Shown here: piece by piece, positions 34,428 through 37,242 of the stretch
How the letters are laid out: each line of letters opens with the position of its first letter
How positions within the stretch are numbered: the stretch's first letter is position 1
NCBI GenBank assembly: GCA_000165345.1
Contig: CM000430.1
Span: forward strand, 704,001 to 768,000
Length of the DNA stretch: 64,000 nt
Reading direction: 5' to 3'
Made by a program: the position numbers and the translations under genes
Notes under the pieces: model-generated
What the model saw: only the letters and a program-made list of their open reading frames with translations
Databases searched by the model: none
What the model was told of the DNA's origin: nothing

Positions 34428-37242
34428 TTAGCCAAGACAAGTTTCAATCTTATTTCTAATGGTCTTAAGGTTATCTTTAGGGGAGAATTTGATTTCAGTA
34501 AAATTCTGAATGGGATGAATAATAAGTTTATTATTGAAAAGTAATAAAATAAAAAAAATGAATAATCTTTTTTATTCAACTTACTTGAAAAGGAAAAGAA
34601 TGTTTATTGGTATTATTGGAGAAAATTAATGAGTCTAGATCCCAGTATCCAAATTCAAAGAGTAAGGTTTTAAAATATTGAGCAATTCCTTCTTCAGATA
34701 AGCAATTATGTGCAAAGTTAGAGGTGATTTTTGAGATATTACTTGAGATTTGGGGATTCTCCAAGATTAAATTAACCTATAAAATTTAGGAAGTTAATGA
34801 AAGAGATGATATTTGTGGACCAATATTGAAATATAATAATAATAATAATAATAATAATAATAATTATTATTATTATTATTATATTATTTAGTAATAAAAA
34901 TGGAGTTTATGGGATTATTTGTGAGATTAATATGTTCCATATATCCTCTAATATATCCTAAAAGTTTCTCCATTTATTGAAATGAAGAGTAGAATTAATT
35001 GGAAAAAGAAGATTTCTTTTTGTTTCTTCAACTCCCAGCTCAATTCTCATGTTCATTTCTCTATATTATTATTTTTATTAATTCCAATAATATTGAGAAA
35101 ATGGTCCAACCAAAGATCAGGATTTGGCTAACTTACATTTAATAAGATATCACTGATATTATTAAATTTGAAAAAGAGACGGTTTTTCTTGAATAAAAGA
35201 TCATAGAATTGGTGTGAGTAATAAGATCTAATATTTTGGAAGATCATTGTTCCTAAAAAAAATTTAAGTTTAAAAGTAAATATTATGGATGAAATAAAAA
35301 TTATATTTAACTTACCAGTAAGCATAAGCATTCTAAGTCTATTAGACCAAGGACCGACCCCAGATAGGTCTAAAGAGAATTTACTAGATACTAATCTGTT
35401 GATCCAGTCTATAAAAGATATCGATTCCTTTCTACAAATGAATTTTGAATCGCATAATGTAAGTTTTTCAAGTAAATTGGCTCTATTTTCACAAGAGATT
35501 TTGTTTGAATCAGATATAAATACGTGATTTGAAATATTTCCACTATGAAAATTATTATGGTATATTTCATTATATATATTACAAGAAAGATCAAGTCTGG
35601 ATGTATCTGTATATCTTCCAATAAAGAATAGAGTATTATTTTTAAGATTCCATAAATCTTTATTATTATTTGGATATTCATTCGAAATAAAAGATCTTGC
35701 AATAAGTTCATTATTATCAAGATGATTAACATATGGAATAGAAGCAAAATCCCATGAGTTTGAGTTTGATGATATTGAAAGTATAAGACCACTAGAATTT
35801 GGTGAGTTTTTAGGATTGAATTGACAAATACAATGAAGATGATTAAATAGTTTAAATATATCTCTTTTTTTTAATTTATCAAAAATGGATGTAAATATGG
35901 AATTATTATTTTGAAAAAAACAAGGAATATAACACTTTATTGTTCCATAACACATTATTTCTGGAATATGATAACGAGATAATATTGAAATAATTTGTTT
36001 AACAAAATTGTTGATTATTTCACATATTGTATATGTTGTGAGATGATTATTGATTAAACTTGAAAATATGGTACCATTATTTTGATGATAATTTTGGTCA
36101 TCATTTTGAATTATAGATTGATTATTATTATTTTGGTTTTGATAACGATAATGATTAAAAGAAAGAAAGTAACTTTTGGATACAGAAGAAGAATAAGAGG
36201 TAAAGTTTGAGGATTGATTGGTTACATTAACTGTAGAATCTTCACAAATGTTCATATTACTATTGTTATTACTATTATCATTATTATTATAAGAGATTAA
36301 GGTTGAAAGAGAAGTACATTTACTATTAAATTGTTGCTGAGGTTTTAAAAATACATGGTGAATTTCTGTTGTGTTTGAGAGTAGGAATTGCATTTGTTTG
36401 GAGAATTTAGAATTTAAGATACATTTTTCAATATGAAGTGTATCATTTTTGTAAATATGAAATGGCATAGATTTCCAGATTATAGGGCAATCATCATAAT
36501 GTATGAGCAAATCTAAATATCTTATATGATTATTATACTTTAAAGAGTTATTTTCGTTATTGTTTTCATTTTCTTCTATGCTATTTTTTTGAATTGCTTT
36601 AAATATATATTTAATAGTATGATTAATATCTCTGATCTTTAATTGTTTTAATTTACTTACTTTAGGTATACGTTGATCTGGAATACATGAAATAATTGGT
36701 TCAAATTCAAGTATTTTACGATTTATTGAATCAAAGATATATTTAAAACGTAGTTTAATCATTGTAATATCATCATTTATAGTAGTATATGATAAGTACT
36801 TAATCATTTCTTCAATTTGAAATGAAGGGCCCAATATTAATGATTTAGAATGATTAGATGAATTAATAATGGAGCTAGTTTTGTATTTTGAAATTAAAGA
36901 TTTTACACTTTTTTTCCAGTAATTTTGACATAATTTTGGAAAGTTATTTTTTTGATGATCTTGAAATGATTTAATGATTTCAGGTAAATTATTAAATATT
37001 TGAAAAATATTTTCATCATTTTTTTCAAAAATCTGTTCAGAATCAAAAGAAATATTAGGATTACTATCTTCGTTTTGAATTAATTTAGCATCTTCTTTTT
37101 CAAGTAGAATTTGCTGATTTATTTGTTGAAAAAGTTTGTTTTTATGATCATTATCATTTTTAAATTCTGTAATAATGTAACAAATGATACATACCAATAC
37201 TAAAGAATGGATAAATAGAGCAACAAGTCTTATTCGAATCAT
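34428..37242 (-). CDS. GT90 / CAP10-like glycosyltransferase (protein O-glucosyltransferase-like), type II membrane topology, 3-4 exons (37242..35316, 35252..35137, 34776..34585, ?34505..34428)
   Basis: The N-terminal anchor is LVALFIHSLVLVCIICYII. The spliced product reads LFFIGRYTD...LDLSGVGPWSNRLRMLMLTG|TMIFQNIRSYYSHQFYDLLFKKNRLFFKFNNISDILLN|VNLILENPQISSNISKITSNFAHNCLSEEGIAQYFKTLLFEF. This parallels the KDELC/POGLUT block ...DG...RL.YLL.G.SVVLKQ.S.YYEHFY..L.P..HY.PV...LSDLLEKL.W....EEA..IA..G..FA...L. All donors are GTAAGT. The last 78-nt exon is tentative; the alternative is termination at 34576. Confidence 0.6.
34833..34882. repeat. Palindromic trinucleotide microsatellite (AAT)n abutting (ATT)n, inside the GT90 gene's 360-nt intron
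   Basis: The sequence ataataataataataataataataataataattattattattattattat has two halves that are reverse complements. Confidence 0.9.

Follow-up and report, generated by a model that had tools for sequence, protein, structure and literature searches.

The minus strand of a 64,000-nucleotide (nt) stretch of Cryptosporidium parvum DNA (assembly GCA_000165345.1, contig CM000430.1, positions 704,001 to 768,000; hereafter the window, in whose own numbering all coordinates are given) carries cgd2_3500, which is a new and so far unstudied member of the known GT90 family of glycosyltransferases. In our reading, to which we give a probability of roughly 0.75, its four exons encode an inverting GT90 enzyme that is anchored in the membrane, is probably active and belongs to a lineage comprising chromerids and Cryptosporidium; expressed in the macrogamont, it would modify oocyst wall or surface material within the secretory pathway. 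In the literature searched, GT90 was not linked to Cryptosporidium and cgd2_3500 did not appear in any main text. A probably active GT90, as predicted here, would thus be a family new to that literature and a genetically testable candidate for glycosylation of the oocyst wall or surface.

The program-made list of open reading frames (ORFs) gave the gene as a single ORF of 704 amino acids (aa; 35128..37242, minus strand). Three GTAAGT donors lie on the same strand, and downstream of each comes a pyrimidine-rich tract and then an AG; the four exons thus delimited (Table 1) join in frame into 2313 nt, consisting of 770 codons and a TAA stop. An earlier note on this DNA had proposed "two or three" GTAAGT introns. 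The number is three, and the junction coordinates that it had listed were exact and give the in-frame 770-aa product.

Splicing was judged by comparison with the orthologous loci of seven other Cryptosporidium species (C. ubiquitum, C. bovis, C. felis, C. canis, C. meleagridis, chipmunk genotype I and C. andersoni). The gene order was the same in all seven, namely a Cus1/SF3b gene (DUF382 and PSP domains), the cgd2_3500 orthologue and an AP2 gene. A tblastn search found every C. parvum exon at each locus, and the intervening stretches contained stop codons and varied in length. In all seven species, introns 1 and 2 fell at the same codon position as in C. parvum and in the same phase, with GTAAGT or GTAAGC...AG found by a junction-wise search in the six other than C. 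andersoni; when the junctions of C. andersoni were read directly, donors GTAATG and GTTGGT were seen at the same positions. Intron 3 was clear in five of the seven (C. ubiquitum, C. canis, C. meleagridis, the chipmunk genotype and C. andersoni) and probable in C. bovis, but not clearly placed in C. felis. Compared with C. meleagridis, the exons were 91-94% identical without gaps, whereas the introns were 73-90% identical with many indels of lengths that are not multiples of three. The ranges of length between species were 63-120 nt for intron 1, 51-446 nt for intron 2 and 50-86 nt for intron 3. As the exons are kept in frame across species while the introns diverge, vary in length and hold stop codons, the four-exon structure of cgd2_3500 was confirmed by this comparative evidence at the level of genomic sequence.

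The spliced protein matched the Pfam family Glyco_transf_90 (PF05686) at aa 616-723 with an E-value of 6.3e-7 and a score of 29.1 bits, above the curated gathering cut-off of 24. The match was partial, covering positions 212-319 of the 396 in the profile and hence the C-terminal domain only, and spanned exons 1-3. Neither the unspliced ORF nor exon 3 alone gave any Pfam match even at E<=10. The earlier note had held that the protein becomes recognisable as a GT90 only once the introns are removed and that the spliced form should be found by Pfam, and both expectations were borne out.

Profile searches placed the protein among GT90 enzymes from outside the genus. We built a profile from ten Cryptosporidium sequences, and an exhaustive search with it through 1.84 billion representative proteins gave 23 matches at E<=1e-3. 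Cryptosporidium proteins came first, including those of the gastric species C. andersoni, C. muris and C. serpentis, followed by at least seven paralogues of Vitrella brassicaformis (E 1e-28 to 6.5e-46 for the stronger ones), named 'Glycosyl transferase CAP10 domain-containing protein' in UniProt. A homologue from the EukProt transcriptome GHVR01 came after these, and then GT90s of Bathycoccus prasinos and metagenomic origin (E 1e-10 to 1e-5). The non-Cryptosporidium matches that were tested scored 38-94 bits on PF05686. In a profile-profile comparison by hhalign, the Cryptosporidium profile aligned with a small profile of undisputed GT90s, made of algal sequences and human POGLUT1, over 186 columns with 98.4% probability (E 8.3e-15); its alignment with the single POGLUT1 sequence was weak (E 0.058). 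When a wider alignment of 14 sequences (Cryptosporidium, Vitrella/GHVR01 and algal or metagenomic sequences) was used for a sequence search of the PDB, POGLUT2, POGLUT1 and Rumi were detected with E 6e-23 to 1.5e-18. In a word-indexed protein search with this wider alignment, Cryptosporidium proteins alone were among the matches listed, probably because low-complexity words took up the 8000 candidates allowed.

The predicted structure agreed with these results. An AlphaFold2 model built on the wider alignment had a mean predicted local distance difference test score (pLDDT) of 70 and a predicted template modelling score of 0.70, with low confidence confined to aa 50-76, 257-270, 294-388, 442-444 and 734-739, and a pLDDT of about 89 for the last 20 residues. 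In a Foldseek search of the PDB with this model, POGLUT1, Rumi and POGLUT2 made up the first four matches (E 2.7e-6 to 2.2e-5), and a gap separated them from the rest. The similarity to the POGLUT1/2 fold, at 15-16% sequence identity, stood well apart from that to other GT-B enzymes. In the predicted model, both Rossmann-like domains of the GT-B fold can be superposed on a solved GT90. Pfam, the profile search, hhalign and fold similarity thus support the membership of the spliced protein in GT90/CAP10, and in every family feature that could be tested the cgd2_3500 protein is a GT90.

In the structure of POGLUT1, Asp133 acts as catalytic base, both donor phosphates are bound by Arg218 and Arg279, the backbone of Val274, Ala275 and Ala276 in the turn 272-276 holds the glucose, and Phe278 stacks on glucose C6 (PMC5543122). 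The human POGLUT1 sequence aligned here matches all residue numbers of that paper (PMC5543122) as well as the offsets of chain 5l0r_A. The counterpart of Asp133 is Asp251, which was invariant in the ten Cryptosporidium sequences, and was Asp in four of the five Vitrella/GHVR01 sequences and in all four alignable algal or metagenomic sequences of the wider alignment. Arg549 (TSRLDL) stands opposite Arg218 (SPERDPL) and was nearly invariant in the genus, and Arg635 (WSNRL) stands opposite Arg279 (ASFRF) and was invariant across all 14 sequences. Both Arg alignments agreed in hmmsearch, hhalign and MAFFT. These two residues of the 770-aa protein correspond to Arg547 and Arg633 in a 768-aa isolate protein. 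The surroundings of these residues differed: the sugar-binding turn reads GVGPWS, one residue longer than GVAAS of POGLUT1 and in a form common to Vitrella, and the RG of 'FRG' in POGLUT1 has become IG-R in Cryptosporidium. Judged by alignment, the residues predicted to bear the chemistry are kept, but this conservation does not extend to the donor-sugar pocket or the acceptor face.

The N-terminus contains the one stretch of the spliced protein that reached 1.6 or more on the Kyte-Doolittle scale in a 19-aa window (aa 1-28, maximum 2.87), beginning with MIRIR, and the AlphaFold2 model has a helix at residues 2-51. A type II signal anchor would be the simplest reading of this segment and is favoured over a cleaved signal peptide because the hydrophobic core is at least 20 residues long, in line with the N-terminal anchor put forward in the earlier note. 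The C-terminus (...IETCLG) has no KDEL-type tail.

Published primers for reverse transcription PCR of cgd2_3510 and cgd2_3480 (PMC3305300, supplement) map to position 39178 of the window, within the Cus1-like ORF, and to 28786, within the ORF upstream of the AP2 gene, respectively. This identifies the AP2 gene at 30529-34356 as cgd2_3490 and the present gene as cgd2_3500. Its transcription is female-biased: the log2 expression was about 2.0 in sorted asexual stages, 6.5 in females from culture and 7.5 in females in vivo, with a log2 fold change of 4.52 (about 23-fold) between females and asexual stages (Tandel 2019 supplement, PMC6877471). The gene is listed as 'Uncharacterized protein' in tables of female-specific genes (PMC6877471, PMC11078545), and was classed as 'Female specific' and lowered by two differentiation inhibitors (PMC11078545). 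According to published work on the female stage, numerous glycosyltransferases are expressed there, in a second wave that follows the wall proteins. The same literature states that no oocyst wall polysaccharide has been identified, and that a UDP-glucose dehydrogenase (UDP, uridine diphosphate), cgd8_920, is female-expressed.

Taken by analogy with POGLUT1 and from the conservation of the residues concerned, Asp251 would deprotonate the acceptor hydroxyl, Arg549 and Arg635 would hold the diphosphate of a UDP-sugar, and the sugar would be transferred with inversion. The lumenal part would be a divergent GT-B enzyme belonging to a single-pass, putatively type II membrane protein, and the macrogamont may use this enzyme in its secretory pathway to modify cargo bound for the oocyst wall or its surface coat.

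Several observations weigh against this reading. The single-sequence Pfam score is just 5 bits over the cut-off, and 2 of 10 deposited orthologue models alone reached PF05686 at E<=0.01. The PDB sequence search with the Cryptosporidium-only profile was marginal, with POGLUT2 on top at E 0.053. The homology of the N-terminal domain and the assignment of Asp251 depend on the model and a short motif. Furthermore, Asn634 stands at the position of Phe278 in POGLUT1, and LFFKF replaces the 'HYIP' motif of the family.

The closest solved structures would seem to point to a true POGLUT-type O-glucosyl- or O-xylosyltransferase of the endoplasmic reticulum (ER), adding O-Glc or O-Xyl to Ser of disulfide-rich modules, such as epidermal growth factor (EGF)-like modules or the Cys-rich modules of oocyst wall proteins, as Rumi/POGLUT1 does on the EGF repeats of Notch. 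POGLUT1 and POGLUT2 are indeed the nearest solved structures, the catalytic Asp and both Arg are conserved, and expression in the female stage coincides with the synthesis of Cys-rich oocyst wall proteins. With POGLUT1/Rumi (PDB 5L0R, 5F84) the protein also shares C-terminal helices that align without gaps. POGLUT2/KDELC1 (PDB 9W47) was the best sequence match among solved structures: the stretch from DILL to NFA and that from DLLE to EFA in the human protein are both 27 residues long, as the earlier note had stated, and align without gaps to chain 9w47_A. In contrast, the identity to POGLUT1/Rumi is only about 16%, and the glucose subsite of POGLUT1-3, formed by the GVAAS turn and the glucose-C6-stacking Phe278, is absent, with GVGPWS and Asn in their places. 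POGLUT1 has a cleaved signal peptide and a KTEL tail and POGLUT2 a KDEL tail, whereas cgd2_3500 has a putative N-terminal membrane anchor and neither the soluble ER-lumenal form nor the KDEL-like signal of POGLUT1-3. POGLUT2 also bears an extra N-terminal filamin-type domain that the cgd2_3500 protein does not have.

The acceptor side differs as well. A Cryptosporidium-specific insertion of about 226 aa (aa 257-482, at about 35800-36475 in the window) follows the catalytic Asp directly and is not present in POGLUT1. It is rich in Asn and Ser, disordered at aa 294-388 in the AlphaFold2 model, and flanked by conserved helices and Cys clusters (CYGTIKCYIPC and HLHCICQF). The spacer from the catalytic Asp to the next core strand (LSISS) thus takes about 226 residues, compared with about 10 in POGLUT1. 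The insertion could form an acceptor-binding module. The residues of human POGLUT1 that contact EGF (Phe104, Arg107, Ala172 and Gln240) were not placed by the weak alignment of the N-terminal domain, and the insertion lies in this region. The acceptor motif C-X-S-X-[PA]-C was found in none of the ORFs of the 64-kb window, a result that is uninformative for the proteome. The nearest sequence relatives are chromerid and algal proteins instead of animal POGLUTs, and other GT90 members use glycans or lipids. On this balance a POGLUT-type activity is unlikely. The earlier note had suggested a protein O-glucosyl/xylosyl-type transferase; its family assignment held, but the sugar-binding turn, Phe278, the KDEL-type tail and the soluble lumenal form that are specific to POGLUTs were all lacking. 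As the sugar-binding turn and the acceptor-facing N-terminal domain differ, the donor and acceptor of POGLUT1-3 are not transferable to cgd2_3500.

The same divergence would also suit a catalytically dead GT90-like protein, serving as a lectin-like, structural or chaperone factor in the secretory pathway of females, or an enzyme other than a glycosyltransferase. The 15-16% identity to POGLUT1/2, the loss of the HYIP motif, the altered sugar-binding turn, the large low-complexity insertion and the marginal Pfam score are consistent with such a protein. The equivalents of Asp133, Arg218 and Arg279 are nevertheless invariant or nearly so in the genus and in most Vitrella paralogues, and the exons have no frame-breaking indels across the whole genus, which makes the loss of activity quite improbable.

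Besides POGLUTs, the GT90 family includes fungal beta-1,2-xylosyltransferases, one bacterial apiosyltransferase and uncharacterised plant DUF821 proteins, and some members act on glycans or lipids; family membership therefore does not define the donor or acceptor of cgd2_3500. Cxt1p/Cap10 of Cryptococcus neoformans and XpApiT of Xanthomonas, which are members of the same CAZy family, build surface or capsule glycans, and this type of role would fit an enzyme made at the female stage, when the cell builds a wall. Like the type II protein proposed here, Cxt1p sits in the membrane in type II orientation. The donors of Cxt1p and XpApiT, UDP-Xyl and UDP-Api, are not established for Cryptosporidium.

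The nearest relatives outside the genus are the Vitrella CAP10-domain proteins (CEL98308, CEM23325, CEM34586 and others). They share with the Cryptosporidium sequences the clade motifs [IV]GR in place of RG, LD[LF]PG[VI]GPWS.RLR and QFYD and a DDCP-type catalytic motif. Unlike cgd2_3500, which has one syntenic copy in each Cryptosporidium genome examined, they form at least seven paralogues in a free-living alga, themselves uncharacterised, and their catalytic Asp is about 35 aa away from the next strand, a distance of about 230 aa in Cryptosporidium. No named match from Toxoplasma, Eimeria, Plasmodium or piroplasms was obtained in the exhaustive search of 1.84 billion proteins. Going by these sequence relationships, the predicted enzyme belongs to a Cryptosporidium/Vitrella-specific branch of GT90, and its occurrence in Cryptosporidium and Vitrella, with no named match in other apicomplexans, would be a small example of differential loss in Apicomplexa.

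A more specific and tentative proposal is that cgd2_3500 is the enzyme, or one of several, building an as yet undescribed, female-only glycan of the oocyst wall or glycocalyx, made by a GT90 lineage that came from a chromerid-like ancestor and, going by the search results, was lost in coccidia and haemosporidia. Possible products are an O-linked hexose or pentose on Cys-rich wall proteins, or a branch on a wall proteoglycan. If this were true, oocyst formation or resistance would have a parasite-specific determinant in cgd2_3500.

Table 1. Features of cgd2_3500 in the window, all on the minus strand
Feature	Position	Strand	Description	Basis
Exon 1	35316..37242	-	aa 1-642 and first base of Gly643; N-terminal anchor, N-terminal GT-B domain with catalytic Asp, Cryptosporidium-specific insertion, start of C-terminal domain	reading frame; N-terminus MIRIRLVALF kept in orthologues
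Putative signal anchor	37159..37242	-	codons of aa 1-28, sole transmembrane-like stretch	Kyte-Doolittle
Asp251	36490..36492	-	codon GAT, in HYDDCP; proposed catalytic base, aligns with Asp133 (VRDYP) of human POGLUT1	alignment
Arg549	35596..35598	-	codon AGA, in FFIGRYTDTSRLDL; aligns with phosphate-binding Arg218 of POGLUT1	alignment
Arg635	35338..35340	-	codon AGA, in GVGPWSNRLR; aligns with phosphate-binding Arg279 of POGLUT1	alignment
Intron 1	35253..35315	-	63 nt, phase 1, GTAAGT...AG; interrupts Gly codon after ...RMLMLT	
Exon 2	35137..35252	-	TMIFQNIRSYYSHQFYDLLFKKNRLFFKFNNISDILLN	94% nucleotide identity to C. meleagridis, gap-free
Intron 2	34777..35136	-	360 nt, phase 0, GTAAGT...AG	
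Exon 3	34585..34776	-	VNLILENPQISSNISKITSNFAHNCLSEEGIAQYFKTLL..., C-terminal helices of GT90 domain	aligns to POGLUT1/2
Intron 3	34506..34584	-	79 nt, phase 0, GTAAGT...AG	
Exon 4	34428..34505	-	NFTEIKFSPKDNLKTIRNKIETCLG and TAA stop; without KDEL-type tail	terminal Cys conserved
PF05686 match	34651..35397	-	genomic span of aa 616-723 of 770, introns 1 and 2 included	

The gene model itself is not new, as it has already been deposited. The spliced 770-aa product is identical to GenBank WKS76648.1 and differs from KAL5370145.1 (768 aa) by an indel of two residues; for C. hominis, too, a spliced model has been deposited. The indel is 6 nt in frame, CGTTAT (Arg-Tyr in NHYRYQNQ), at 36142-36147 of the window and inside the low-complexity insertion. 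Three recent GenBank records hold the spliced model, for one of which the PF05686 match is precomputed, and none of them is named a glycosyltransferase. The unspliced ORF persists in older records, among them XP_626537.1/Q5CTD2 and CPATCC_000563. In this legacy ORF, aa 638-665 form a second hydrophobic stretch, which is intron 1 translated: it reads KLNIIFISSIIFTFKLKFFL in the 704-aa ORF and appears as a spurious "transmembrane domain near the C-terminus". This translation of intron 1 accounts for the product name 'transmembrane domain-containing protein near C, signal peptide' inherited in GenBank, and the newer, correctly spliced GenBank records still bear this misleading name. That the legacy model is right, with an unspliced mRNA and a secreted 704-aa product ending in ...DILLNVS that has a transmembrane segment near its C-terminus and no glycosyltransferase domain, as the 702-707 aa ORFs in older GenBank, RefSeq and UniProt entries of C. 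parvum, C. hominis and C. tyzzeri would have it, is barely conceivable, because the segment in question is translated intron 1, the downstream exons are in frame in up to eight species while the intervening sequence diverges, changes length and holds stop codons, GT90 is recognisable in the spliced product only, and three newer annotations use the spliced model. The legacy unspliced models thus conceal the GT90 domain in addition to having produced the misleading name.

Among the deposited orthologue models, most have an incorrect 3' end. The C. meleagridis model ends inside intron 1 and that of the chipmunk genotype inside intron 2, the C. felis model omits exon 2, and the models of C. bovis, C. 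xiaoi and C. ryanae are without exon 4. The C. canis model runs in another frame over aa ~500-600, where its genome encodes the conserved sequence.

At its 3' end, cgd2_3500 (minus strand, from 34428) is convergent with the AP2 gene cgd2_3490 (30529-34356, plus strand). The stop codons of the two genes are only about 70 bp apart, so that the 3' untranslated regions probably overlap. The AP2 gene encodes ApiAP2-1, reported as required for female differentiation. As cgd2_3480 (27972-29951, plus strand), cgd2_3490 and cgd2_3500 are all strongly up in females (Tandel 2019 tables), this suggests that the three genes form a small co-regulated cluster.

Intron 2 was shortest in C. bovis (51 nt) and longest in C. 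felis (446 nt). In the window it contains two microsatellites back to back, (ATA)~11 and (ATT)~9, at 34833-34888. Its length of 360 nt is long for an intron of Cryptosporidium. The window is AT-rich, with a G+C content of about 24-40%.

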